64,000 bases of DNA from Bacteroidales bacterium (GTDB lineage: Bacteria > Bacteroidota > Bacteroidia > Bacteroidales > UBA932): NCBI GenBank assembly GCA_017438975.1, contig JAFRUH010000019.1, positions 12,656-76,655 of the forward strand, written 5' to 3'. The number at the start of each line of letters is the position of its first letter. The stretch's first letter is position 1. Made by a program: the position numbers and the translations under genes. Below are positions 904-63,431 of this stretch, in pieces. The notes below the pieces were generated by a model, which searched no databases, was not told the DNA's origin, and worked only from the letters and a program-made list of their open reading frames with translations.

Positions 904-2706
904 TCAATCCTCCGAGGAAGAATTTCTCTTCCTGTCGAGCGGATCGAGCAGAATCTTGCGCATACGCATGTGATTCGGCGTGATTTCGACCAGTTCGTCG
1001 TCCTGGATATATTCCAACGCCTCTTCGAGGGAGAACTTGATCGCAGGAGGGAGAATGACTTTTTCGTCGCTTCCCGAAGCGCGGACATTGGTCAGCTTCT
1101 TCGTCTTGCATATATTGATGTTCAGGTCCCGGTCACGGGTATGTTCCCCGACGACCTGGCCACCGTAGATTTCCTCACCGGGTTCGACGAAGAAACGGCC
1201 GCGGTCCAGAAGCTTGTTCATCGAGTAGGCGACGGCCTCTCCTGTCTCGAGGGAGACCAGGGAACCGTTCGTTCGCATCTCGATCTCGCCCTTGAAAGGC
1301 TGGTACTCCTTGAAGCGGTGAGCGACGACCGCCTCTCCCTGGGTGGCGGTCAGCAGGTTGCTCCGCAGGCCCATCAGGCCACGTGTCGGGATCTCGAATT
1401 CCAGCAGGGTCCGGTCTCCTCTGGGTTCCATCCGCACGAGCGCTCCTTTCCGGCGGGTCGAGATCTCGATCGCCGCTCCGACGAACTGCTCGGGGACTTC
1501 GATGGAAAGGTCCTCGATCGGCTCGCAGCGCTGCCCGTTGATCGTCTTGTCCAGCACCTTCGGCTGGCCGACCTGCAACTCGAATCCCTCGCGCCGCATC
1601 GTCTCGATCAGGACCGAAAGGTGCAGGACGCCGCGTCCGTAAACGACGAACGAATCGGCGTTGATGCCCGGCTTGACCCGCAGGGCCAGGTTTTTCTCCA
1701 GTTCCTTGTCCAGACGCTCCTTGATATGACGGGAGGTCACGTATTTTCCATCCTTTCCGAAGAACGGGGAATTGTTGATCATGAAAAGCATCGACATCGT
1801 CGGTTCGTCGACCGCGATCGGCGGCAGAGCCTCAGGATGCTCGATATCGGCGATCGTATCCCCGATTTCAAATCCCTCGATGCCGACCACAGCGCAGATA
1901 TCGCCGCAACCGACCTCCTCGACATTCGACTTCCCGAGCCCTTCAAAGATCATCAGCTGTTTGATTTTGGACTTCTCGATGATGTCATACCGCTTGCAAA
2001 GGCTTACGGGCATGCCCGTCCGCAGCGTTCCACGGGTAATCCTTCCGACAGCGATCCGGCCGACATAGGGCGAGTACTCGAGGGACGAGACCAGCATCTG
2101 GGGCGTTCCCTCCACTTTCGCCGGGGCCGGAATCTCTTCGAGAATCGTATCGAGAAGGGCCGTGATGTCCCCCGTAGGTTGCTTCCAGTCATGGGACATC
2201 CAGCCCTGTTTCGCACTGCCGTAGATCGTTTTGAAATCCAGCTGCTCCTCCGTTGCGTTAAGGGCGAACATCAGGTCGAAGACCTCTTCCTGGACCTCAT
2301 CCGGCCTGCAGTTCGGCTTGTCGACCTTGTTGATCACGACGATCGGTTTCTTGCCCATCTCCAGGGCTTTCTGGAGCACAAAACGTGTCTGCGGCATACA
2401 GCCCTCGAAGGCGTCGACCAGCAGGAGGACGCCGTCCGCCATATTGAGGACACGCTCGACCTCGCCTCCGAAGTCACTGTGTCCGGGAGTATCTATAATA
2501 TTGATTTTCACGCCCTTATATGTCACTGAGACATTCTTGGCGAGAATGGTGATCCCCCTCTCCCTCTCAAGGTCATTGCTGTCTAGGATAAGGTTGCCCA
2601 GATCTTCGGGACGGCGCACCAGATTGGCCTGGTAAATCATCCGGTCGACGAGGGTCGTCTTGCCATGATCGACATGGGCAATGATCGCTATGTTCCTGAT
2701 TTCCAT
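904..2706 (-). CDS. typA: Translational GTPase TypA/BipA
   Basis: IRNIAIIAHVDHGKTTLVD, ERERGITI, DTPGHSDFGGEVER, NKVD, C-terminal EYIQDDELVEITP. Confidence 0.98.
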   Translation of the reverse strand: MEIRNIAIIAHVDHGKTTLVDRMIYQANLVRRPEDLGNLILDSNDLERERGITILAKNVSVTYKGVKINIIDTPGHSDFGGEVERVLNMADGVLLLVDAFEGCMPQTRFVLQKALEMGKKPIVVINKVDKPNCRPDEVQEEVFDLMFALNATEEQLDFKTIYGSAKQGWMSHDWKQPTGDITALLDTILEEIPAPAKVEGTPQMLVSSLEYSPYVGRIAVGRITRGTLRTGMPVSLCKRYDIIEKSKIKQLMIFEGLGKSNVEEVGCGDICAVVGIEGFEIGDTIADIEHPEALPPIAVDEPTMSMLFMINNSPFFGKDGKYVTSRHIKERLDKELEKNLALRVKPGINADSFVVYGRGVLHLSVLIETMRREGFELQVGQPKVLDKTINGQRCEPIEDLSIEVPEQFVGAAIEISTRRKGALVRMEPRGDRTLLEFEIPTRGLMGLRSNLLTATQGEAVVAHRFKEYQPFKGEIEMRTNGSLVSLETGEAVAYSMNKLLDRGRFFVEPGEEIYGGQVVGEHTRDRDLNINICKTKKLTNVRASGSDEKVILPPAIKFSLEEALEYIQDDELVEITPNHMRMRKILLDPLDRKRNSSSED

Positions 2707-2727
2707 ACACTAACTATTAAAAACTTG

Positions 2728-2777
2728 CAAAATTACGGAATTATCGCAAGAAATGCAGTATTTATTTTATATTTTTG
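2728..2777. promoter_or_regulatory. Divergent -7 elements for typA (minus) and guaA (plus)
   Basis: TAATTTTG on minus strand at 2728-2735 and TATTTTTG on plus strand at 2770-2777, in a 90-bp AT-rich intergenic region. Confidence 0.65.
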
Positions 2778-2796
2778 CATCCAGTTTTGAAATCGT

Positions 2797-4383
2797 ATGA
2801 CTGAGAAAATCATCATTCTGGATTGCGGTTCCCAGGTGACCATGCTGATCGGCCGCCGCCTCAGGGAAATCAACGTCTTCTGTGAAATCCATCCGTTCAA
2901 CAAGGTTCCGGTCCTCGACGGGGATGTCCGCGGGGTCATCATCTCCGGCAGTCCCTGCTCGGTCCGGGACGCCAACGCCCCCCGCATCGACCTGTCCGGG
3001 ATCAAGGGGCGTTTCCCTCTCCTCGGAATCTGCTACGGTGCCCAGTATCTGGCGCATACCTGCGGCGGCAGCGTCGAAGGGTCCCTCGCCCGGGAATACG
3101 GACGCGCCCAGCTCCGGGTTACGGATCCCGGCTCTCCCCTGCTGGAGGGCATCTCCGCAGAAAGCGTGGTCTGGATGTCCCACGGGGATACCATCGCCCG
3201 CCTTCCGGAAGGAGCCAGGTCCATCGCATCGACCGCCGACGTAGCCAACGCCGCCTTCAGTTTCGACGGGGAGAATACCTACGGCGTACAGTTCCACCCG
3301 GAAGTCTATCACACGGAAGAAGGGCTCCGGATGCTCTCCAACTTCGCCCTTGGCATCTGCGGATGCAAGGGCGACTGGACCCCGGACGCCTTCATCGAGA
3401 CGACCGTCCGTCACCTGAGGGAGCGCATCCCGTCAGGCGAAAAAGTCATCCTCGGCCTCAGCGGCGGAGTCGACTCGACCGTCGCCGCCGTCCTGATGAA
3501 CAAGGCGATCGGTTCCCAGCTTACCTGCATCTTCGTCAACAACGGTCTCCTCAGGAAAAACGAATTCAAGGATGTCCTCGCCTCATACAAGGACATGGGC
3601 CTCAACGTGATCGGCGCGGACGCCGCCCAGGACTTTCTCACCGCCCTTTCGGGCCTTTCCGAACCGGAAAGCAAGCGAAAGGCGATCGGAAGGGTCTTCG
3701 TCGAGACCTTCGAGAAATACGCCCGGCAGATCGAGGGGGCCCGCTGGCTCGCCCAGGGGACGATCTATCCCGATGTCATCGAATCCGCCGGGATCGAGGG
3801 CATCGCCTCCAAGATCAAATCCCACCACAACGTCGGCGGACTGCCCGAAAAAATGGACCTCAGGGTCGTCGAACCGCTCCGGACCCTTTTCAAGGACGAA
3901 GTTCGTCGGGTCGGCCGCGCCCTCGGCATCAAGGAAGAACTGATCGGACGCCACCCCTTCCCGGGGCCGTCCCTCGCCATCCGCATCATCGGGGAAGTAA
4001 CTGAAGATAAACTGGATATCCTCCGGGAAGCGGACGATATCTTCATCCGCGGGCTCCGCAGCTACGACTGTTCCGCCCTGCACCTTCCCTCCGCCGCGGA
4101 ACCCTCCCGCGAGGCCAGAAACCTCTATGAGGCCATCTGGCAGGCCGGCGTCATCCTCCTCCCGGTCCGAAGCGTCGGAGTGATGGGCGATGAAAGGACC
4201 TATGAGTTTCCGGTCGCCCTCCGCGCCGTCGTCTCGACCGACGCGATGACTGCCGACTGGTTCCATTTCCCCTATGATTTCCTCGCAGACATCAGCAACG
4301 AGATCATCAACAAGGTCCGCGGTGTGAACCGCGTCGTATACGACATCTCTTCCAAACCCCCGGCAACGATCGAGTGGGAGTAG
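2797..4383 (+). CDS. guaA: GMP synthase (glutamine-hydrolysing)
   Basis: [46 protein letters not shown]. Confidence 0.98.
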
Positions 4384-34179: not shown

Positions 34180-34773
34180 TTAGATCTCAGATCTCTTTCG
34201 GATATCCTCGATATACAGATATCCATTGCTCATCTCTTCCAGCACATTAACCTCCAAAACCTTCTGGGAAGAATATAGCGAAGCCAGATTTTCCTTAGAG
34301 ATCGTCTCATACATACGCAGACCAAGAGACGATGCCAAATCCATCGCACAAAGGCACATTTGTTGTCCAATCCCATGCCCCTGATTACCTATGTCAACCA
34401 TCTTTCCGAGGTAACTCTTACCAATAAAAAAACTGCGCAGGAAGAAATACCCGACGATCTCGCGCTCTCTCAGATAGACATACATCAGGAAAGACGGATT
34501 CTGGGAAAGCCTCTCCAATGATCGCTTATCAAAAGAATGCGGTCGGAAAAACTCAAAAGCTTCTGTTGGCTGCTTAGCAAAGAATGATTCTAAGGCATCA
34601 ATATCCGCTTCTTGAACTCTTCTCACTTTCGGATATTCAGACAGAACTATTCGCTCACTTTTCTCCAGTTTTCTATCATATCGAATCTTGAAAAGAACTC
34701 CATTCCCCCATTCGACTACTTGCCAAATCGGTCTGACATGGAATTGAAGGAAATGTGCAATCTTGTACAGCAA
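34180..34773 (-). CDS. GNAT-like protein
   Basis: LGKMVD...QGHGIG acetyl-CoA-binding-like motif; TISKENLASL. Confidence 0.65.
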   Translation of the reverse strand: MLYKIAHFLQFHVRPIWQVVEWGNGVLFKIRYDRKLEKSERIVLSEYPKVRRVQEADIDALESFFAKQPTEAFEFFRPHSFDKRSLERLSQNPSFLMYVYLREREIVGYFFLRSFFIGKSYLGKMVDIGNQGHGIGQQMCLCAMDLASSLGLRMYETISKENLASLYSSQKVLEVNVLEEMSNGYLYIEDIRKRSEI

Positions 34774-34778
34774 TGCTT

Positions 34779-36263
34779 TTACAAAGCAAATGAAATATCC
34801 TCTCCTCTTCCAACTCTAAATATACTCAATTTGTGATTATGATAATCAGCAATGACTATCGATACAGCTTGCTCTGAAATGGAACCAGATTTAGCTATCT
34901 CCCCATTTATTGTTTGCCAACTATCCGTTGTAAGTATAACGATTGGTATCATGCCTTCTGAAATGACAACGCCATCTCGATGATTATGTCCACCGATACA
35001 AAACTCTATCGTTCCTTTTCCGCCAGAAAAATCATAATAAACACTTTCATTAAGATACTTAAAGACGCCACTTGTTCGCGAATTATAATCGTCAAGGACA
35101 GCGATTATCGGTTTTACATATGACGAAACGACACATTTCTTCTCTCCATCTTCATTTTGTAGACCACACCATATATGACTCGCCATAATAATATGCCACC
35201 CGCTTGGAACAGAATCTAAAGTCTCAATTAAAAACTGTGCAGTCCTAATACTGGCATCGCGAAACTGCGAATAATACAAGCGTCCAGTATCCAAACAAAT
35301 ATATCGCGTTTTTGAAACAGTATCATCAAAATAATAATTATAATAATCCCCATAATAGACATCGTCCATTTGGCTTTGCAAATAAGAATAGACTTGTTGT
35401 TCTGTTAAATGAAGATCTACATTATTGGGCTGTTCATCAGAATTATTATCATGATTACCATAGAGACAATACAATTTATTTCCCAAAAAACTAAAAGACT
35501 TTTTAAAACTCTCCCCTATTTCTATTGCCTCTTGAACAGTTGATGTTTTAGTCGTAATGACATCACCACCAAATAACACTTTACGGACACTTGTGTTGTC
35601 AAGGATATGTTGAATTAAAGCTGGCGAATGCTGTGAATTCTGTCCCCAATGAGCATCCGTAAAAAAAACGAAACTTGCTTGATCCTTGCCTGCCTCCAAA
35701 ATAGCGGCATTCGCATAATCTTCTTTTTGGCACAGTTGAGAGATAAAGTAATCCGGAACTATGAGATTAGGGTCTAAAATGATTGACAAGTCATTGAACG
35801 AGCCATCAGCATAAACTATTGTTATAGTTTTCCCTCTATATATTATGTATGATATATCAGATTGTTGATGGTTATGAGTTTTTTTTGCTTTGATCCCTGA
35901 ATCAACGCCATCTAATAACCAAGTATTATCATCACTTATGGTCAAAACTGGAGTCCTGGGGGATAGATCATTTAAATAGTCCACAACAATTGTTGTCCTT
36001 CCCCCGTTTATTGCCCAACAATTATCTATTATAGATAAAACTGGAGTAAAATCACCAGAAAGATGATAAGTTTGTCCATCTCCTAAAACAATCGATATAT
36101 CTCCACCGGAACAAGAAAAACTTGACACCTGAACTCTTGATTGAATCTCGCTAATTAGTTCTCTTTGCCGAACTAATTGACTTTGAAAGCTTGATAATAA
36201 TTCACGGTAAGTACAGCAGTGAATTATGGATAAACTAAAAACAATCAGAAGTATTCTTTTCAT
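34779..36263 (-). CDS. Calcineurin-like metallophosphoesterase, probable lipoprotein with DUF4988-like N-terminus
   Basis: TDAHW, GGDVI, GNHD, SH, GGHNH complete metallophosphoesterase set; N-terminal TPVLTISDDNTWLLDGVDSGIKA; signal ending HCC. Confidence 0.82.
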   Translation of the reverse strand: MKRILLIVFSLSIIHCCTYRELLSSFQSQLVRQRELISEIQSRVQVSSFSCSGGDISIVLGDGQTYHLSGDFTPVLSIIDNCWAINGGRTTIVVDYLNDLSPRTPVLTISDDNTWLLDGVDSGIKAKKTHNHQQSDISYIIYRGKTITIVYADGSFNDLSIILDPNLIVPDYFISQLCQKEDYANAAILEAGKDQASFVFFTDAHWGQNSQHSPALIQHILDNTSVRKVLFGGDVITTKTSTVQEAIEIGESFKKSFSFLGNKLYCLYGNHDNNSDEQPNNVDLHLTEQQVYSYLQSQMDDVYYGDYYNYYFDDTVSKTRYICLDTGRLYYSQFRDASIRTAQFLIETLDSVPSGWHIIMASHIWCGLQNEDGEKKCVVSSYVKPIIAVLDDYNSRTSGVFKYLNESVYYDFSGGKGTIEFCIGGHNHRDGVVISEGMIPIVILTTDSWQTINGEIAKSGSISEQAVSIVIADYHNHKLSIFRVGRGEDISFAL

Positions 36264-37095
36264 TATGATTCTCTTTCCAAAAAAAAGACAGATACTTAGA
36301 TTCTTTGGGGACCCTTTGATCACTTGGAGGCAGTTTCATATAATCACCATAAATATTGCGTAGGATGCGATCATATCCTTTAGGAATAAAAAAATCATGC
36401 CCTTGAAAAGTAGTTAATTCTAATTGAGAAATATCTTCAATTCTTTGATAGTTCTTTACATGATCATCTGCACAACCTGCCTGAGTCCAATGATTAGATG
36501 AACCGAATTCACATTTTGCGATCTCTGCCTGAATACTATTCTTAATTCTGGACAAGATCTTCTCATTATAAAAGAGACCCCTAAGTACCTTCATCTTAAT
36601 TCTTCTCATAAAAGAGTCGGCCAACTCAACATCTCCTCTTGACTGACGTATTTGACATTGAATAAGCCATAAAAAATGGATCCTTCTAATCCGAGATTTG
36701 AATAATTTGTAATTATCTTCCGCACCATCTATAGGGAATATATCAATCCAAATCCCTCCTGGGTCATCTAATGAATGATAGGGACTGATCGTCTTTACTA
36801 TTGTTCTTTTATCATCATATACTCTACAAAAATTAATGTAGCTATGCTGATCGTATTCAGAAATGATGGAGAAGTTATCAGATTTAAATGACTCACAAAA
36901 TCGGCGATAATCATTTCTTGTCATTACAATATCAATATCATCATCCCAAGGGATAAAGCCGCGGTGGCGAATCGCTCCAAGCAAGGTACCATATGCTAGA
37001 GAATAATGAATTAGGTTTTTTTGGCAAAAAGAGTGAACTTCCAACAATATCTCTAAACAAATATTCTGAATCTCGTTTAATGATAATTTTGACAT
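36235..37095 (-). CDS. LicD family phosphotransferase
   Basis: YGTLLGAIRHRGFIPWDDDID, WIDIFPID, YGDYMKLPP. Confidence 0.92.
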   Translation of the reverse strand: MSKLSLNEIQNICLEILLEVHSFCQKNLIHYSLAYGTLLGAIRHRGFIPWDDDIDIVMTRNDYRRFCESFKSDNFSIISEYDQHSYINFCRVYDDKRTIVKTISPYHSLDDPGGIWIDIFPIDGAEDNYKLFKSRIRRIHFLWLIQCQIRQSRGDVELADSFMRRIKMKVLRGLFYNEKILSRIKNSIQAEIAKCEFGSSNHWTQAGCADDHVKNYQRIEDISQLELTTFQGHDFFIPKGYDRILRNIYGDYMKLPPSDQRVPKESKYLSFFWKENHNEKNTSDCF

Positions 37096-37129: not shown

Positions 37130-38305
37130 TCATCGACGTCCTAGTCCAAAAAATGAGGGAAATAGGGTCAATCGAGTTTTAAGTGCCCTAAGAAAATACG
37201 CAAAAACAAAAAAATAATCTTTCTGATCCCAAAGATAGTAACTATCCGAAGTAACGAAGTCCTTAAGCCATTTAAACAATGAGATCTGTTTGGTCAAAAC
37301 ATATGTCCTAAAATCCTTTATTTCATTGATAACGATCAATGGACTTTTAAGGATCTGTGTGGGTGCAAAACGTCGCATAGTTATTGATCTAATCCAATCC
37401 ATCATCAAATTTGCTCCCATATCAGTTAACGCATGATTATATTGAGTATGCCTAAAATTGATTTCCAAAAAAAATAACTTCCCACTTTTATCTCTCATAA
37501 ACTCTATTTCAAATATCCCCGAATATCCAATATGTTGAAGCATTTTTTTTACTCTCACAAGAATCTCTTCACCTAAAGAATAGCTTTCTAGTTTTTTGTA
37601 TGAGCCAAAACCATCTTTGGGACAACGAAGGTATTCTCCTTGAACTGGAATAATAACTGTATTACCAGAATCTAATGACACACCTTCTAAAGCAATTTCA
37701 TTATCTTTTTCAATAAATGATTGCAATAAGACAGAAGAAGAGCTACACGATTTATAAAAATCCAGTAAATCATTTTCATCCATACAGATAGATGTATCTT
37801 TCTTCCAATAGGGATCAAAAGAATCTATGGACTTGGTAAAAATAGGATAAGAAACTCTTCGGGGCAATTCGCCGACATTGACTTGTTCAGTTTTTGGCAC
37901 ATTGAATCCAACCGATTCTGCTAATGTACATTGTTCAACTTTTGAGAGGAATGCTGACAATCTTTCGTCTTTCCCGGCATTAAAGAAGAAATAATAATCT
38001 TTTAATAAAGAGTAATGTTTGTCTAGTAATGAAATGAACGAGTCACTATCTGATGAAATAATAGCTTTATTATCGAAATTCCTCTTTGAAACAATTAAAT
38101 CAAATGCTTCGAGACTATCGCGGACAGAATAATAATTCCCAATATATTTACACTTTTGAGGATTATGTGAAGAGTTATACTCCATCCATATAACAGTTGG
38201 ATGAATTCCACTTTCCCCTAATGTTCTTATTTGTCCAAGTGTATTAAGAAGGTGTTGCCCTACAACTATAACCTCGATACTATTCAAACGATTGTCTGTG
38301 ACCAT
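37130..38305 (-). CDS. ATP-grasp ligase
   Basis: LSKVEQCTLA..GFNVPKT, YPIFTKS, LLQSFIE, GIFEIEF, FLEINFR. Confidence 0.8.
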   Translation of the reverse strand: MVTDNRLNSIEVIVVGQHLLNTLGQIRTLGESGIHPTVIWMEYNSSHNPQKCKYIGNYYSVRDSLEAFDLIVSKRNFDNKAIISSDSDSFISLLDKHYSLLKDYYFFFNAGKDERLSAFLSKVEQCTLAESVGFNVPKTEQVNVGELPRRVSYPIFTKSIDSFDPYWKKDTSICMDENDLLDFYKSCSSSSVLLQSFIEKDNEIALEGVSLDSGNTVIIPVQGEYLRCPKDGFGSYKKLESYSLGEEILVRVKKMLQHIGYSGIFEIEFMRDKSGKLFFLEINFRHTQYNHALTDMGANLMMDWIRSITMRRFAPTQILKSPLIVINEIKDFRTYVLTKQISLFKWLKDFVTSDSYYLWDQKDYFFVFAYFLRALKTRLTLFPSFFGLGRR

Positions 38306-38909
38306 TTATTCCCGCCATTTTTCTTATTACTCGTGCAATTGTAGTATAGCTACCATTTGGCCTTTTATATAGTTTAATCAACAATATACTACAGACATAG
38401 CGGCATTTATAATACAAGGTATTCCTGAACCCTTGAATATCTTTCTTAAATAGAACAGAATAATAGTTATTTGTCTTAAATGAATCAACGCCAATTTTAA
38501 CAAATCCGCTTTTTAGATGTAAACGAATCGACCAATAAGCGCCTACCGCTGTATCACTAAGAATATAATCACAATGAGTTCTCCTTGCCTCTTCAAAGCA
38601 ATGGTTGATTAACAATGTGCCAATCCCTAAATGCCTTGCTCTTTTACTTACAGCGAGATATGCGATTTTTGCATATCTTCTATCTTTACCCAAAATGAAG
38701 AAAGTGATTGTTCCTAGAAGATTCCCATTCTCATCCATACTGACAAAGATGGTCCCTTCTTTAGTACGGGCCATAAACTCCTCCTGTGTTAATTGCAAAA
38801 GTGATGAGAGAAGCCCATGATCTTTCCACAACTGGAATGAATCAACAATGAGTTGAACGATTTCTTTTATTTCAACTTCCGTATCAATTAATCTTTTGAT
38901 TTCTACCAT
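38280..38909 (-). CDS. GNAT family N-acyltransferase
   Basis: LAVSKRARHLGIGTLLI motif A; SIRLHLKSGF. Confidence 0.85.
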   Translation of the reverse strand: MVEIKRLIDTEVEIKEIVQLIVDSFQLWKDHGLLSSLLQLTQEEFMARTKEGTIFVSMDENGNLLGTITFFILGKDRRYAKIAYLAVSKRARHLGIGTLLINHCFEEARRTHCDYILSDTAVGAYWSIRLHLKSGFVKIGVDSFKTNNYYSVLFKKDIQGFRNTLYYKCRYVCSILLIKLYKRPNGSYTTIARVIRKMAGINGHRQSFE

Positions 38910-40258
38910 TATTGGGAATCAATGAATACTACAGAATGTCTTTTATAATAATCTTCTAGGATTGATGTCATTGCAAAATACTCTTTTTTTGACAATTTAG
39001 AGTACAACAATCTATCTGACAAAACAATACTTGCGAACTCTTTAATCTCATACCTCAACCCCTCTCCCGAATAAGGGTAGAAATACTTCTTATTTTGGTT
39101 TTGGTCTTCATATCTGATCTCGAAGTAATCCGTTTTCCACCATGGCGCCGGGACATAGGCATATCCTTTTGTTCCAGAAATGACCATATTACCTTCTGAT
39201 TTGACTCCCAATCCGACCTGGAAGGAGGCAATCGCAGATTGATACTGAATAACTGCTTTAGTATAGATATCAACACCATTTCGCATCTTTGAATAGAATC
39301 GAATATCCTTATAGTCAGTTCCCAACAATTTAAAGATTGGAAGCAAAGGGAAACATGCATTCTCACTCATACTTCCGCCTAAAAACGCCTTATCTAACTT
39401 TTGAGAAGACTCATCTGTCAATGTCGTAACAGAGGCATTGACATCGACGATTTCACCTATCATCCCAGACTTGAGAAGAGTGATCAGGTGGCCAAATGCC
39501 GGGCAATATGCAGTCTTCAGAGCGACCATCATTACAAGGTTATTCTCTTCAGCAATCTTAAATAACTCTTCCGCCTCTGATCGCTTGAATACAAAAGGAG
39601 TTTCGCACAAGACATGTTTCCCTGCAATTAAAGCCCTGTTTGAATAATCATAATGCGTAATATGAGGAGAAGCGATATATACCGCAGTACAATTCTCCAA
39701 TAATTCCTCAAATGAAGAGGCGACTGTGGGAATTGAAAACTCCTGACAGAAAGACCGGCATTCATCCTGATTAGGATTAAAAGCACCTGTGATCTCTACA
39801 CTATTAACAAAACCAGCCTCTGGAACAAATCTTCTGGCAATACTGCCCGTCCCGACGATCCCAATTTTTACAGATGGCCTCTCTTGTCGAAGTTGCGTGC
39901 TTGATATGCCCTCTGTTCTAGGAAGATATACCACCTCACAGAACTCTTTCAGATAATCGAAATAACCGACCCAATCAGAGCCTATCGCAAAAATGTCAAC
40001 ACCATACTTTTGGATATCATCGATCTTCTGCCCCTTATATTCCTCAATGATAATCTGGTCAGCTAAACCGGTTGAGCGAACGGCTTCTATCCGCTCCATT
40101 ACGTTATTACAGGTATTCAGTTTGCCTCGTTCTAAGTCAAAGTTATCTGTCGTCACCCCGACAATCAGCCAGTTTCCCAGCTCTTTCGCTCTCTTCAGCA
40201 GGTTTAAATGTCCCTGATGAAAGAGATCAAACGTTCCGTATGTGATTACTTTCTTCAT
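38909..40258 (-). CDS. TagD-type cytidylyltransferase fused to Gfo/Idh/MocA oxidoreductase
   Basis: N-term YGTFDLFHQGH, GSDW, RTEGISST; then GIVGTGSIA, ASPH, HVLCETP. Confidence 0.9.
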   Translation of the reverse strand: MKKVITYGTFDLFHQGHLNLLKRAKELGNWLIVGVTTDNFDLERGKLNTCNNVMERIEAVRSTGLADQIIIEEYKGQKIDDIQKYGVDIFAIGSDWVGYFDYLKEFCEVVYLPRTEGISSTQLRQERPSVKIGIVGTGSIARRFVPEAGFVNSVEITGAFNPNQDECRSFCQEFSIPTVASSFEELLENCTAVYIASPHITHYDYSNRALIAGKHVLCETPFVFKRSEAEELFKIAEENNLVMMVALKTAYCPAFGHLITLLKSGMIGEIVDVNASVTTLTDESSQKLDKAFLGGSMSENACFPLLPIFKLLGTDYKDIRFYSKMRNGVDIYTKAVIQYQSAIASFQVGLGVKSEGNMVISGTKGYAYVPAPWWKTDYFEIRYEDQNQNKKYFYPYSGEGLRYEIKEFASIVLSDRLLYSKLSKKEYFAMTSILEDYYKRHSVVFIDSQ

Positions 40259-41301
40259 GCTTCCTCAAATTCTCTAATTCGAGCGGCTAATTCAATCAGT
40301 TCCTCATCAGATTGTAAGCCCATATGTGACACCCTATAAAACCCAGGAATGGATCCAGGCATAATAAACGTCTGATACTTTTCGATTAATCCACGGAAGA
40401 TCTTTCGTTCTTTTGTATCCTTCGTCTGGAAGCCAGTAATGGCATAGGATGGCACTTCAGCAGGTATCGGCCAACCATATCCCTGACACAATTTGCGAAA
40501 TACTCCTGCGCGATGACGGACCGAAGAAATATTCACATACTCTCCCCCTTCTTCCTTTAATTGAATAAGGCGTTCGTGAAGTTGTAAATAGAGAATCGTG
40601 GCTGGACTGAAAGGAGTCTGACCTCTGGTAAGATTGGATAGATTATCGTTGAAATCCCAGTAATAACCATTATGCGCGAATGGGTAGCCATCCACGTTCT
40701 TGCTTAGGAAAAGGATAGACAATCCTGGTGGAATGTTAAGCCCTTTTTGAGTGCTGGTAATACAAATATCAATGCCCAAATCATCCATATTCAACTCTTC
40801 CGCCAAAAAGGTGCTGATTACATCTACGACTATGGAGACTCTATTCTTATGACAAATATCACTAATCCGTTGAAGATCAAACAATTGTCCAGATGAAGTT
40901 TCATGGTGCTGGCATAGGAAAACATCCGGCTTTTCGTCTGCAACAACTCTCTCTAGATCATCATAATCAATATCCTTGGCAAATGGGACCTGGTAATGGA
41001 CTACAGGAACAGAATAATACTGACATAGATCAAACCAACGATGTCCAAATGACCCGCCATCTATGACAATAGCTTTATTTTTTGTCTTAACGTAGTTTTC
41101 CACAACTGCACTCATCGCGCCAGTTCCAGATCCGGTATAGATGATAGTTCGGCCTTGGGAGCAATGGATCAAATCAAGCAAAATCCTCTCTGATTCTTTA
41201 TTGATCTCAGAGAACTCATCTGTTCTCATGTACATAAACGGCTGAGAGCCAATCGACATGATTCGCTCATCAATATCGCCAGGGAATGCGTAGGATCTCA
41301 T
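40255..41301 (-). CDS. Class V PLP-dependent aminotransferase-like enzyme
   Basis: GSGTGAM, HHETSSG, VDVIS, TSTQKGLNIPPG (PLP lysine), RVSHMG. Confidence 0.88.
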   Translation of the reverse strand: MRSYAFPGDIDERIMSIGSQPFMYMRTDEFSEINKESERILLDLIHCSQGRTIIYTGSGTGAMSAVVENYVKTKNKAIVIDGGSFGHRWFDLCQYYSVPVVHYQVPFAKDIDYDDLERVVADEKPDVFLCQHHETSSGQLFDLQRISDICHKNRVSIVVDVISTFLAEELNMDDLGIDICITSTQKGLNIPPGLSILFLSKNVDGYPFAHNGYYWDFNDNLSNLTRGQTPFSPATILYLQLHERLIQLKEEGGEYVNISSVRHRAGVFRKLCQGYGWPIPAEVPSYAITGFQTKDTKERKIFRGLIEKYQTFIMPGSIPGFYRVSHMGLQSDEELIELAARIREFEEA

Positions 41302-41309
41302 ACAATATA

Positions 41310-42212
41310 TTAATTATCCAACTCGATTAAACGTAAAGGGTGTCGCCATCTTTTCTCAATAGGCGGCAAAGACATATAATCAGGCCCAAATTCTGTTTCC
41401 AAATACAATTCTATCTTCCCCGGAACCGGACAACTTACCCCTTCATACTTGTTATACGCAACAGGAAGATACATATCTTTGCTCCTTGGAGTCCATCCAT
41501 AATCCCCTGTCGGAGAGTGCAGCATACCTGTTTCTTTTTTAAGAGACACAAAAGAATCGAAAATCTGCCCCCATTTATCCAATGAAAAGAATGAGAAAAA
41601 AAAGCCAATTGATCGCCTAAGGTAATAGTTGATTTTCAAATCAGGTTTACTCGTCATAAAAGAACGATAAATCTTTGACTTGTTCCTATACATAAGGACA
41701 CATCCGAAAATAAAAATCAATGCAAGAGAACTATATTTCATATAGAACCTCTTCATCCTCCCCTGTGGCATATTCTCCAAAGGAAATATATCGATATATG
41801 CACCACAATACTCATTATCTTGGGCATCGATTGACAAGAACTTGCTTCGCTTATCTATTACTTTTCCAAATAAGCATGTTGTATAACCTCCAAGTAAAGG
41901 AGATGTAACATAATACTTATCTCCATATTCAGAAGGAAACAAGTGAATAAACTTGAGATAATCATCTTTAGGCATAAAAACATCAATATCATCATCCCAT
42001 GGTATGAACCCTTGATGACGATATGCTCCTAAAGCAGAACCATACGCAAGCATCACAGTTAAATCATGCTTCTCACAAAAGGCCTTAATATCCAACCAAA
42101 TGCAAGTAAGATACTTGTGTAAATCAGATAATTCTTTATCAGAAAGAGCGTGAAGATATTCTGATTCATAAGAATACTTCATTATCAGCGTCCTTGTTCT
42201 TAACAGTGCCAT
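41310..42212 (-). CDS. LicD family phosphotransferase
   Basis: YGSALGAYRHQGFIPWDDDID, IDIFPLE, FGPDYMSLPP. Confidence 0.92.
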   Translation of the reverse strand: MALLRTRTLIMKYSYESEYLHALSDKELSDLHKYLTCIWLDIKAFCEKHDLTVMLAYGSALGAYRHQGFIPWDDDIDVFMPKDDYLKFIHLFPSEYGDKYYVTSPLLGGYTTCLFGKVIDKRSKFLSIDAQDNEYCGAYIDIFPLENMPQGRMKRFYMKYSSLALIFIFGCVLMYRNKSKIYRSFMTSKPDLKINYYLRRSIGFFFSFFSLDKWGQIFDSFVSLKKETGMLHSPTGDYGWTPRSKDMYLPVAYNKYEGVSCPVPGKIELYLETEFGPDYMSLPPIEKRWRHPLRLIELDN

Positions 42213-49291: not shown

Positions 49292-50443
49292 TCAAATGTT
49301 GTTGGTATTGTTTAGCAACATCCCTAGCATTCCTTGCGCAAAAGGAAGGTACCCTAATTGTGCGGAATAAGAACCTATTGCCTTTGTATCTCCCTGGCAA
49401 AAATCAAGTTTGCCATTCCTCTGCGTCATTTTTTTTAATCTTACTAATAGCCTGTTAAGAGATTCTTGATACCGGCTATCTTTGGTAATATTGTAAGCTT
49501 CATTTATCAATAAACCGCACAAAACAGTTGAAGATCCTTCTGAAGGTCTTCCTTTAATAAAGAGTTGAGAGCCAAATCCACCATCATCATGCTGACATAA
49601 AAGAACATTATCAGCCAAACGAATAATTCTATTGCTGAATTCTAACTTAGATGGATCTTTTTTATCTGTTTCTTTATACAAACAAATCAAAGCAATGATG
49701 TACCATCCTAAACCTCTTCCCCAATCATATATTCCTAAAGGAGCCTTTAGAGAAATACTATATGCATGACTTGGAAATCCCCAATTAGCCAAACAATAAG
49801 AGTCATAATCAAAGAATACTCTCTTTGCTAATTGAGCAGCTTCTAAACATTCATATGCCACAGCATACTTCGCAAGAAAGGGGCAGACAAAACCAAGAGT
49901 ATCGACAAAACGAGTATCAAATTGTCCTTTTTTATATGGAATTGTATCGTTTACTCCTTTTAACTCCACGATATATGAAAATGTTTCATCCATTGATACT
50001 TTTACTGAAACTGGAGAAACATGGCATAGAACAGCATATGATAATAAACCAATCTCTACCGAATTAGGCTTCCGCCTCCAAGAGCCGTGGTCATTAAATA
50101 AAGAAGATAATAAACTATTGATAGAGTTCTCATCATTACAACCTAACAATAGCCCCGCCAACTGCCAATACTGAATATCGGAACTCCGATTCCTCTTGAA
50201 GATCCGGTCAAACAATAAAAGCCTATCTCTATCTTGCCGTTGAACGATCGGCACATGTAACAACCAATGATTAATAACTCTATCAACAGATTTCTTCCAT
50301 TCATCATCTGAAACCCATTGTCCAATATGTATTCTTGCAAACCACTTGGAAAATGCGATAAAAATATCATAAAGAATAATGATTATCGCAACTAAACCAA
50401 AAACAACAAAAAAATATACTAGAAAATTATTCATTGGAAACAA
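49292..50443 (-). CDS. GH88/GH105-like (alpha/alpha)6 protein with N-terminal TM anchor
   Basis: FVDTLG, WGRGLGWY, QHDDGGF, EGSST. Confidence 0.75.
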   Translation of the reverse strand: MFPMNNFLVYFFVVFGLVAIIIILYDIFIAFSKWFARIHIGQWVSDDEWKKSVDRVINHWLLHVPIVQRQDRDRLLLFDRIFKRNRSSDIQYWQLAGLLLGCNDENSINSLLSSLFNDHGSWRRKPNSVEIGLLSYAVLCHVSPVSVKVSMDETFSYIVELKGVNDTIPYKKGQFDTRFVDTLGFVCPFLAKYAVAYECLEAAQLAKRVFFDYDSYCLANWGFPSHAYSISLKAPLGIYDWGRGLGWYIIALICLYKETDKKDPSKLEFSNRIIRLADNVLLCQHDDGGFGSQLFIKGRPSEGSSTVLCGLLINEAYNITKDSRYQESLNRLLVRLKKMTQRNGKLDFCQGDTKAIGSYSAQLGYLPFAQGMLGMLLNNTNNI

Positions 50444-62180: not shown

Positions 62181-63431
62181 TTAATCGCGCTCGAAAAGAT
62201 CGCGGGTATAGACCTTGTCCCGGACGTCGTCGAGGATGGGGTCATATCGATTGACGATGATGCAGCCGCTGCGACGCTTGAAATCCGCGAGGTCATTGAC
62301 GACCTCGGATCCGAAGAAGGTCGATCCGTCGGGAAGGGTGGGTTCATAGACAATGACCCGAGCGCCCTTGGCCTTGATCCGCTTCATGATGCCCTGGATC
62401 GCGCTCTGGCGGAAATTGTCGGAGCCGGTTTTCATGGTCAGGCGGTAGACTCCGACGGTGACCTCACGCTCGCTCCCCCGGTCGAAAGCGTTCCGGGCGG
62501 AATAGCCGTAATACCCGGCTTTTTCAAGGACACGGTCCGCGATGAAATCTTTCCGGGTCCGGTTGCTCTCGACGATCGCACCGATCAGATTCTCAGGCAC
62601 ATCCTTGTAGTTCGCGAGGAGCTGCTTGGTGTCTTTCGGAAGACAGTAGCCGCCGTAACCGAAGGATGGGTTGTTGTAATGGGCACCGATGCGGGGGTCC
62701 AGGCAGACACCCTCGATGATCGAACGGGTGTCGAGCCCCTTGACTTCGGCGTAGGTATCGAGTTCATTGAAATAGCTCACGCGAAGGGCAAGGTAGGTAT
62801 TGGCGAAGAGCTTGACGGCCTCCGCTTCGGTCGCGCCCATATAGAGGACCGGGATGTCTTCCTTGAGGGCCCCTTCGACGAGAAGGCCGGCGAAGATCCG
62901 GGCTTTTTCCGCAAGGCGTCCTTCATCCCCTTTCGGGATTCCGACGATGATCCGGCTCGGGAACAAATTGTCATACAGGGCTTTGGATTCGCGGAGAAAC
63001 TCCGGGGCGAAGAGGATATTCCGGCTGCCGGTCTCGGCGCTGATCCGCTCGGTGAATCCGACCGGGATGGTCGACTTGATGACCATCACGGCGTCCGGAT
63101 CCGCCGCGATGACGGTCCGGATAACGGTTTCGACGGCAGATGTGTCGAAGTAGTTCCTGACGGGGTCATAGTTCGTCGGGGCCGCGATGATGACAAAATC
63201 GGCACCGCGGTAAGCTTCGGAGGCGTCGAGGGTCGCACGAAGATGCAAGTCCTTCTCTGCCAGGTATTTCTCGATATACTCGTCCTGGATCGGAGACTGC
63301 TTCCGGTTGACCGTTTCCACCCGTTCCGGGACGATATCGACCGCCACGACGTCATGGTGTTGAGACAACAGCGTCGCAAGACTCATCCCGACATATCCCG
63401 TTCCGGCAACTGCGATTTTCATATTCTTCAA
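62181..63431 (-). CDS. ugd: UDP-glucose 6-dehydrogenase
   Basis: [37 protein letters not shown]. Confidence 0.96.

Follow-up and report, generated by a model that had tools for sequence, protein, structure and literature searches.

ATP-grasp ligases couple carboxylates to amines. In the UDP-yelosamine pathway of Bacillus cereus ATCC 14579 (Pat/Pyl), an ATP-grasp enzyme is reported to N-acylate the glycan amine with a free acid (Hwang et al. 2014, J Biol Chem 289:35620, as cited in PMC11257628), and in Neisseria the ATP-grasp/phosphoglycosyl transferase PglB2 is reported to put a glyceroyl group on a sugar amine (Chamot-Rooke et al. 2007, as summarised in PMC11130364). In Campylobacter, Cj1438C, a TupA-like ATP-grasp fused to GT2, activates the glucuronate of the glycan, and Cj1437 makes serinol phosphate from dihydroxyacetone phosphate (PMC11800379). 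Here we analyzed a stretch of 64,000 nucleotides from a Bacteroidales bacterium (contig JAFRUH010000019.1; hereafter the window), in which a polysaccharide cassette carries two overlapping genes encoding an ATP-grasp ligase and a GNAT N-acetyltransferase. Our reading of the pair, held with about even confidence, is that the ligase N-acylates a phospho-serinol-type amine and that the GNAT caps the added group.

The two genes overlap by 26 nucleotides when the ligase starts at the ATG at 38305, and still by 8 nucleotides with the in-frame TTG at 38287; the GNAT is translationally coupled to the ligase. An earlier interpretation of the window made from its letters (hereafter the sequence-only reading) had proposed that an ATP-grasp and a GNAT form an overlapping pair within a LicD block, working as carboxylate-amine ligase and N-acetyltransferase. 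We confirmed the open reading frames (ORFs), the overlap and the flanking LicD genes, and the folds, the motifs and a PF00583 match agree with both enzyme assignments. Pfam scores the ATP-grasp marginally (PF02786 at 23.2 bits, cut-off 19.8; PF02222 at 23.7 bits, cut-off 27), so its fold was settled by an AlphaFold2 model, which has a predicted local distance difference test score (pLDDT) of 92.8 and displays the three-domain ATP-grasp fold. ATP-grasp enzymes rely on ATP-binding lysines, a Mg-binding E/E/N triad and a catalytic arginine, and at least 93% of 153 aligned rows of the ligase family retain the residues K122, K158, E268, E281, N283 and R285, the E268-R285 stretch aligning with the E/E/N/R motif of biotin carboxylase.

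Among solved structures, the ligase model lies nearest to PylC (Z 22.1 over 292 residues, root-mean-square deviation 3.5), the L-amino-acid ligase 3vot (Z 21.8 over 329 residues), PurK (Z 21.5; Foldseek E ~1e-15) and PurT (Z 21.0), followed by PurD and BacD. Overall, the best matches comprise PylC and L-amino-acid ligases (PDB 4ffl, 3vot, 3vmm, 4wd3) together with PurK, PurT and PurD, with Z values of 19.6-22.1, and 18.2 for 4wd3/RizA. In all of these enzymes, a small acid is turned into an acyl phosphate, which then reacts with an amine; in the Pur enzymes, this amine sits on a phosphorylated scaffold. Their biological context differs from that of the ligase described here. That the nearest structures (PylC, 3vot, PurK and PurT) all couple a small acid with an amine supports a ligase role. 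Such a structure search had been suggested along with the sequence-only reading; it did identify the fold, with PylC, an L-amino-acid ligase and PurK nearest.

Polysaccharide loci harbour a large, unnamed family of ATP-grasp enzymes to which the ligase belongs: a word-based search yielded 76 relatives, all unnamed, and a profile search of 1.84 billion representatives returned 1012 clusters at E<=1e-30. The loci are those of Bacteroidota, Bacillota, Fibrobacter and further groups. Of the 40 members in the family alignment, the ligase of the window (P0001) included, none matched the TupA-like profile PF14305 at E<=0.01; the same alignment had no PF14397 match and only touched generic ATP-grasp models, and the whole source genome had no PF14305 match. 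Membership of the TupA-like family was ruled out on these grounds, and the expectation of a parallel solution, with no homologue of the Campylobacter enzymes, held in this respect. The ligase gene stands alone, unfused to a glycosyltransferase. Its relatives P0085, P0086, P0091, P0093 and P0167, of 800-1350 amino acids, consist of two to four tandem ATP-grasp units, and P0079 and P0080 are fused to Wzy_C or Wzx/MurJ-like membrane domains. An apparent fusion of 808 amino acids (P0078) was set aside as a probable read-through into a lipoprotein gene, uninformative on function. Moreover, the C-terminal tails of both the ligase (a helix) and the GNAT are cationic and amphipathic, with median net charges of +5 and +7, respectively, and hydrophobic moments above the 95th percentile of internal sequence windows.

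Gene neighbourhoods were then compared across 160 related loci, 80 from genomes and 80 from metagenomes, in which ORFs were called, neighbours clustered and the clusters named with Pfam. The metagenome loci were found by an alignment-based scan, as a single-protein query gave no match, and several close loci are short contigs. Trees were built by quick methods, with FastTree on 153 rows and with IQ-TREE on 69 rows from groups picked in the first tree; the context groups of the family agree with both. The ligase of the window falls in a clade of 20 rows with a Shimodaira-Hasegawa (SH)-like support of 99 in FastTree, recovered by IQ-TREE with 17 of 17 sampled rows and an SH-aLRT of 99. Residues W40, G223, G245, H286 and M296 of the ligase are specific to this clade. 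Eleven related loci measure 7 kb or more (L004, L005, L088, L090, L093, L095, L096, L097, L098, L099 and L103), and in every one of them a LicD gene and a TagD-like cytidylyltransferase fused to a Gfo/Idh/MocA oxidoreductase adjoin the clade ligase. A class V aminotransferase is present in 10 of the 11, L098 being cut at that end. The module occurs in four gene orders, namely aminotransferase-cytidylyltransferase-GNAT-ligase in the window, aminotransferase-GNAT-ligase-cytidylyltransferase in L005, GNAT-ligase-aminotransferase-cytidylyltransferase in L088 and ligase-aminotransferase-cytidylyltransferase in L093. Since the fusion gene is rare, being present in 6 of 400 other Bacteroidales genomes, the linkage between ligase and module is not due to chance. 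The functional tie of the pair to the neighbouring pyridoxal phosphate (PLP) enzyme, already proposed from the letters, is thus supported by the linkage to the aminotransferase in related loci.

Elsewhere in the family, ligases of the far clade (Bacillota and Bacteroidota) adjoin PIG-L (40 loci) or DUF2334 (11 loci) deacetylases, and occur with small phosphoglycosyl transferases (42 loci) and NAD-epimerase. In the middle clades, the commonest neighbour is a GINT1_N-domain (PF24793) protein, which adjoins the ligase in approximately 39 loci (e.g., L108:1256-2125 and L023:11158-12069). An amine-making enzyme adjoining the ligase is the common theme across the family, the aminotransferase in 10 of the 11 loci above and deacetylases in other clades, which is the arrangement to be expected of Pyl- or PglB2-type enzymes.

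As for the GNAT, it matches PF00583 at 56.7 bits (cut-off 20.7), has the acetyl-CoA motif R-H-L-G-I-G at residues 92-97, and its model (pLDDT 89.5) reaches TM-scores of 0.6-0.8 to GNAT structures. Among solved structures, it comes closest to phosphinothricin acetyltransferase, PaiA and RimI/Ard1-type enzymes, a hint, at fold level only, that its closest counterparts may be acetyltransferases of amino-acid, peptide and polyamine amines. The GNATs of these loci form a family of their own, with a conserved cationic C-terminal extension of approximately 50 amino acids; a word search with the GNAT of the window found a single relative, with 84% identity. This GNAT is restricted to one ligase subclade (support 100 for 11 rows in FastTree, and 99 for 10 rows in IQ-TREE), and in 8 related loci it invariably precedes the ligase with no gene between them, at -46 to +22 nucleotides, a recurrence showing that the pairing is not due to chance. 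The sister subclade has the order aminotransferase-ligase-cytidylyltransferase, without a GNAT. Addition of the GNAT in one subclade only, where it is kept with the ligase, fits sequential action of the two enzymes. GNAT paralogues also adjoin LicD genes in L084, L085, L090 and L005, with no ligase beside them there, and a different GNAT adjoins the aminotransferase in L183. A 167-amino-acid gene found at the GNAT position in L093 and L103 was discarded, as it was not GNAT-like by hhalign. In L004 (positions 1334-3062), a locus from a metagenome-assembled genome, frameshifts or assembly errors have divided both the aminotransferase and the GNAT into two ORFs each.

We then turned to the enzymes that would supply the amine. 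The class V (AGT/AepZ-like) aminotransferase is the sole amine-forming enzyme of the cassette; no DegT-type aminotransferase and no 4,6-dehydratase, as a UDP-4-amino-6-deoxy sugar acceptor of the Pyl/PglB2 type would call for, were found among the annotated cassette ORFs, and the rest of the genome may hold such genes. Its PLP lysine motif is intact, with T182-x-x-Q185-K186 and D160 invariant, and its nearest NCBIfam model is PhnW-AepZ, at 127 bits and under the cut-off. A 2-aminoethylphosphonate (phosphonate) route was ruled out for this enzyme, as the source genome (2.8 Mb, 98.5% complete) has no phosphoenolpyruvate mutase. The cytidylyltransferase fusion scores 118 bits against TIGR01518, under the cut-off of 165, and is presumed to make a cytidine diphosphate (CDP) donor.

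The aminotransferase is also found with a stand-alone TagD-like gene and LicD, without a ligase, in L182 and L185, and in L063 it is flanked by two LicD genes, with the cytidylyltransferase fusion alongside and with the only ligase, of the GINT1_N-associated type, approximately 6 kb away. Since aminotransferase, cytidylyltransferase and LicD occur together without an embedded ligase, the amine would go to a CDP-activated, phosphodiester-linked substituent, and the ligase would be an optional add-on to a pathway distinguished by its amine. In six genomes (L171-L176), the cytidylyltransferase fusion accompanies LicD or TagF-like genes without the aminotransferase. The Gfo/Idh/MocA oxidoreductase domain is therefore separable from the amination step, and its absence from L182 indicates that the keto substrate is probably a common metabolite. 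By analogy with Cj1437, conversion of dihydroxyacetone phosphate to serinol phosphate would be the simplest route.

The scheme that we favour builds on the folds, intact catalytic motifs and gene linkage established above, and takes its substrates, the order of its steps and the identity of the acid from gene context and fold. The class V aminotransferase would make an amino-alcohol phosphate, the simplest candidate being serinol phosphate from dihydroxyacetone phosphate, which the TagD-like domain would activate with CTP and LicD would move, in its CDP-activated form, to the glycan. The ATP-grasp would convert a small free carboxylate into its acyl phosphate (ATP -> ADP + Pi), and attack by the amino-alcohol amine would then give an amide. 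That the ligase works in this way is suggested by the general chemistry of such ligases, by the amine-distinguished pathway of the clade, by the far-clade neighbour that uncovers an amine, and by the Pat/Pyl and PglB2 precedents. The acid would most likely be an amino acid, as follows if the GNAT caps an amine of the acyl group: it would acetylate the amine carried in by the new acyl group or, equally, the amino acid could be acetylated beforehand, and either order would lead to an N-(N-acetyl-aminoacyl)-amino-alcohol phosphate side group. The ligase relatives with two to four tandem copies fit a stepwise addition of amine-bearing acids. Moreover, both enzymes probably act at the inner membrane face, with either the lipid-linked repeat unit or the CDP donor as their substrate, because both have cationic amphipathic tails and some ligase relatives are fused to Wzy- or Wzx-like proteins.

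Compared by description rather than by sequence, the locus resembles Pat/Pyl in that an aminotransferase would place an amine on an activated glycan precursor and an adjacent stand-alone ATP-grasp would N-acylate it with a free carboxylic acid; moreover, the genes belong to a polysaccharide operon and have a small phosphoglycosyl transferase as neighbour, as in many loci of the wider ligase family. However, Pat belongs to the amino-sugar aminotransferases and uses a UDP-4-keto sugar as its substrate, whereas the aminotransferase here is of class V, the carrier would come from a TagD-like cytidylyltransferase and be used by LicD, resulting in a phosphodiester linkage, and a GNAT is coupled to the ligase. 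The likeness to PglB2, again one of description, is that an ATP-grasp domain replaces an acetyltransferase and adds a non-acetyl acyl group to a sugar amine; PglB2, however, is fused to a phosphoglycosyl transferase and acts on a 4-amino trideoxyhexose, while the ligase of the window stands alone, coexists with an acetyltransferase and would act on an amine of an amino-alcohol phosphate. In Campylobacter jejuni HS:2 (Cj1438C/Cj1437/Cj1435), a PLP aminotransferase for an amino-alcohol phosphate is likewise found beside an ATP-grasp amide ligase in a capsule locus with phosphoesterases. Nevertheless, unlike the TupA-like, GT2-fused Cj1438C, the ligase here is a stand-alone enzyme without a PF14305 match, and it travels with a cytidylyltransferase and LicD, both of which the HS:2 system lacks.

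Several observations weigh against N-acylation of a phospho-amino-alcohol as set out above. We found no assayed member of the ligase family in the literature, and our literature search found no phospho-serinol or CDP-serinol in a natural glycan. The ligase shares only 10-16% sequence identity with its structural neighbours, and 12-16% with the amino-acid ligases, which makes theirs a fold-level match; at the sequence level no family-level match to L-amino-acid ligases or PylC was found, and the best PDB match by phmmer is PurK, at E 0.0046. In addition, as the cytidylyltransferase fusion and LicD also occur without the aminotransferase, the donor chemistry is unsettled, and the pyruvyl transferase of the cassette and a nearby UDP-glucose 6-dehydrogenase-like gene (ugd) make amidatable glycan carboxylates available. 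Finally, the GNAT might acetylate the amino-alcohol amine directly, in line with the paralogues beside LicD without a ligase and with the GNAT of L183, in which case GNAT and ligase would be alternatives and not partners. Under such an explanation, either enzyme would acylate the same amino-alcohol amine, the GNAT drawing on acetyl-CoA or a different short acyl-CoA and the ATP-grasp on a free non-amino acid, so that the substituent would be mixed or switchable; non-amino acids, namely 2-oxoglutarate and glycerate, are indeed used in the Pyl and PglB2 precedents. We consider this rather unlikely, since the pair is kept together and translationally coupled in all 8 subclade loci, and since this GNAT is found only where the module already has a ligase, which suggests dependence on the ligase product. 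The low similarity of the ligase to known enzymes, together with the presence of the ATP-grasp kinases ITPK1 and synapsin further down the structure list (Z 14-15), could also mean that it serves a step unrelated to the amine, either making a dipeptide-like or acyl metabolite that another enzyme attaches, or acting as a kinase-type ATP-grasp. However, the catalytic arginine and the E/E/N motif are conserved, and the tight, clade-specific embedding between aminotransferase and cytidylyltransferase would be left unexplained, making this explanation highly improbable.

The sequence-only reading had considered a uronamide, formed in analogy with Cj1438, or an aminoacylation plausible, on the basis of an ATP-grasp, a PLP enzyme and ugd occurring together. 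In the uronamide explanation, a glycan carboxylate, belonging to glucuronate or a pyruvate ketal, would be joined to the serinol phosphate made by the aminotransferase, a phosphoesterase would remove the phosphate, and the GNAT would have a separate role. Cj1438C, Cj1437 and Cj1435 perform exactly such chemistry (PMC11800379), the aminotransferase does adjoin the ligase, and phosphoesterases recur in the clade loci (Metallophos in the window and L088, HAD in L088 and L103, EEP in L095, L098 and L099). Moreover, the window has a ugd, and the cassette holds a GH88-like gene and a pyruvyl transferase, the latter able to put carboxylates on the glycan. All three of the genes first invoked are indeed present in the window, but ugd is a host-flank gene outside the cassette; NDP-sugar (nucleoside diphosphate sugar) dehydrogenase genes occur in 11 of the 160 related loci and in none of the window's ligase clade, and a pyruvyl transferase in none of the 25 closest loci. 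The ligase is of another ATP-grasp family than the TupA-like one and lacks the glycosyltransferase fusion, and the recurrent partners of its family elsewhere are deacetylases, which make glycan amines and not acids. In addition, the clade sits with the cytidylyltransferase and LicD, to which the aminotransferase is tied even where no ligase is embedded, and the Campylobacter scheme needs neither of them. Altogether, amidation of a uronic acid or pyruvate ketal was not upheld and appears unlikely.

If the ligase does N-acylate a phospho-serinol-type amine, the product, LicD-attached phospho-serinol with a ligase-added amino acid and a GNAT cap, would be an undescribed substituent. More tentatively, and short of an even chance, we suggest such a substituent together with a wider role, in which the family of more than 1000 clusters could represent a general 'glycan-amine acyl ligase' of gut and rumen bacteria, working on amines from transamination or de-N-acetylation and diversifying capsule charge and antigenicity. 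In gut and rumen Bacteroidales, the capsule determines sensitivity to phages, recognition by the immune system and fitness in the niche, and charged or zwitterionic substituents matter most for host responses; the size and spread of the ligase family suggest that glycan amines are widely re-decorated in a manner so far unrecognised. The clade of the window offers a compact case, with four or five soluble enzymes and simple candidate substrates, and bears on whether CDP-activated amino-alcohols exist as glycan donors.

Regarding the setting of the pair, a low-GC stretch at approximately 29-58 kb of the window (32-40% GC, versus 54-60% in the flanks) holds genes that, by Pfam/NCBIfam annotation of the window ORFs, all lie on the minus strand and have polysaccharide functions. 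They include glycosyltransferases of the GT2, GT4 and DXD-motif types, an EpsG-type polymerase, a Wzx-like flippase, a pyruvyl transferase, three LicD genes, a small phosphoglycosyl transferase and phosphoesterases. Along the minus strand, the order is LicD, class V aminotransferase, cytidylyltransferase fusion, GNAT, ATP-grasp, LicD and calcineurin-like phosphoesterase (Table 1).

Table 1. Coordinates of the genes discussed, in positions of the window.
Feature	Position	Strand	Remarks
Divergent GNAT candidate	34180..34773	minus	197-amino-acid ORF; sub-threshold GNAT matches only
Calcineurin-like phosphoesterase	34779..36323	minus	PF00149
LicD phosphotransferase	36235..37095	minus	Directly downstream of the ligase; PF04991 at 155 bits
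ATP-grasp carboxylate-amine ligase (P0001)	37130..38305	minus	391 amino acids; ATG start
GNAT N-acetyltransferase (P0002)	38280..38909	minus	209 amino acids; ATG start
TagD-like cytidylyltransferase fused to Gfo/Idh/MocA oxidoreductase	38909..40258	minus	PF01467, PF01408
Class V (AGT/AepZ-like) aminotransferase	40255..41301	minus	PF00266
Second LicD phosphotransferase	41310..42212	minus	Directly upstream of the aminotransferase; PF04991 at 125 bits
GH88-like gene	49292..50443	minus	Unsaturated glucuronyl hydrolase family, 39 bits; within the biosynthetic cassette
UDP-glucose 6-dehydrogenase-like gene (ugd)	62181..63431		~4 kb outside the low-GC cassette, upstream of it, in host-GC DNA

The LicD downstream of the ligase has orthologues with 36-44% identity among the related loci, three of which (L084, L085 and L086) carry theirs at the +1 position, and orthologues of the second LicD, with 35-39% identity, adjoin the aminotransferase in L004, L005 and L090. 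A 42%-identical homologue of the calcineurin-like phosphoesterase is found directly upstream of the GNAT-ligase pair in L088, and this enzyme is possibly an accessory part of the module. Two GNATs had been counted from the letters: the one overlapping the ligase is clear, while the second, probably the 197-amino-acid ORF at 34180-34773, stands only as a sub-threshold candidate, with Pfam E values of 0.017-0.09 to three GNAT models and a non-significant hhalign E of 0.14 against the GNAT family of the locus; it has no homologue among the 160 related loci.

Further genes accompany the module in some of the related loci. A trio composed of a second ATP-grasp of the ligase family, a BCCT (betaine/carnitine/choline) transporter and a protein of approximately 220 amino acids recurs in L008, L011, L095 (2836-6091) and L097 (3407-6701), and in L095 and L097 it lies directly beside the aminotransferase-ligase-cytidylyltransferase module; a carboxylate imported by the BCCT transporter could be a substrate of the ligase. 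In L098 and L099 (e.g., L099:10589-13710), the module is followed by an EEP-family phosphodiesterase, another LicD and an AMP-binding (adenylating, DltA-like) enzyme. Moreover, a PylC-like ATP-grasp of 320 amino acids and a HAD hydrolase, making a second pair of ligase and phosphatase, are found upstream of LicD in L088 (2622-4215) and L103 (2675-4316).

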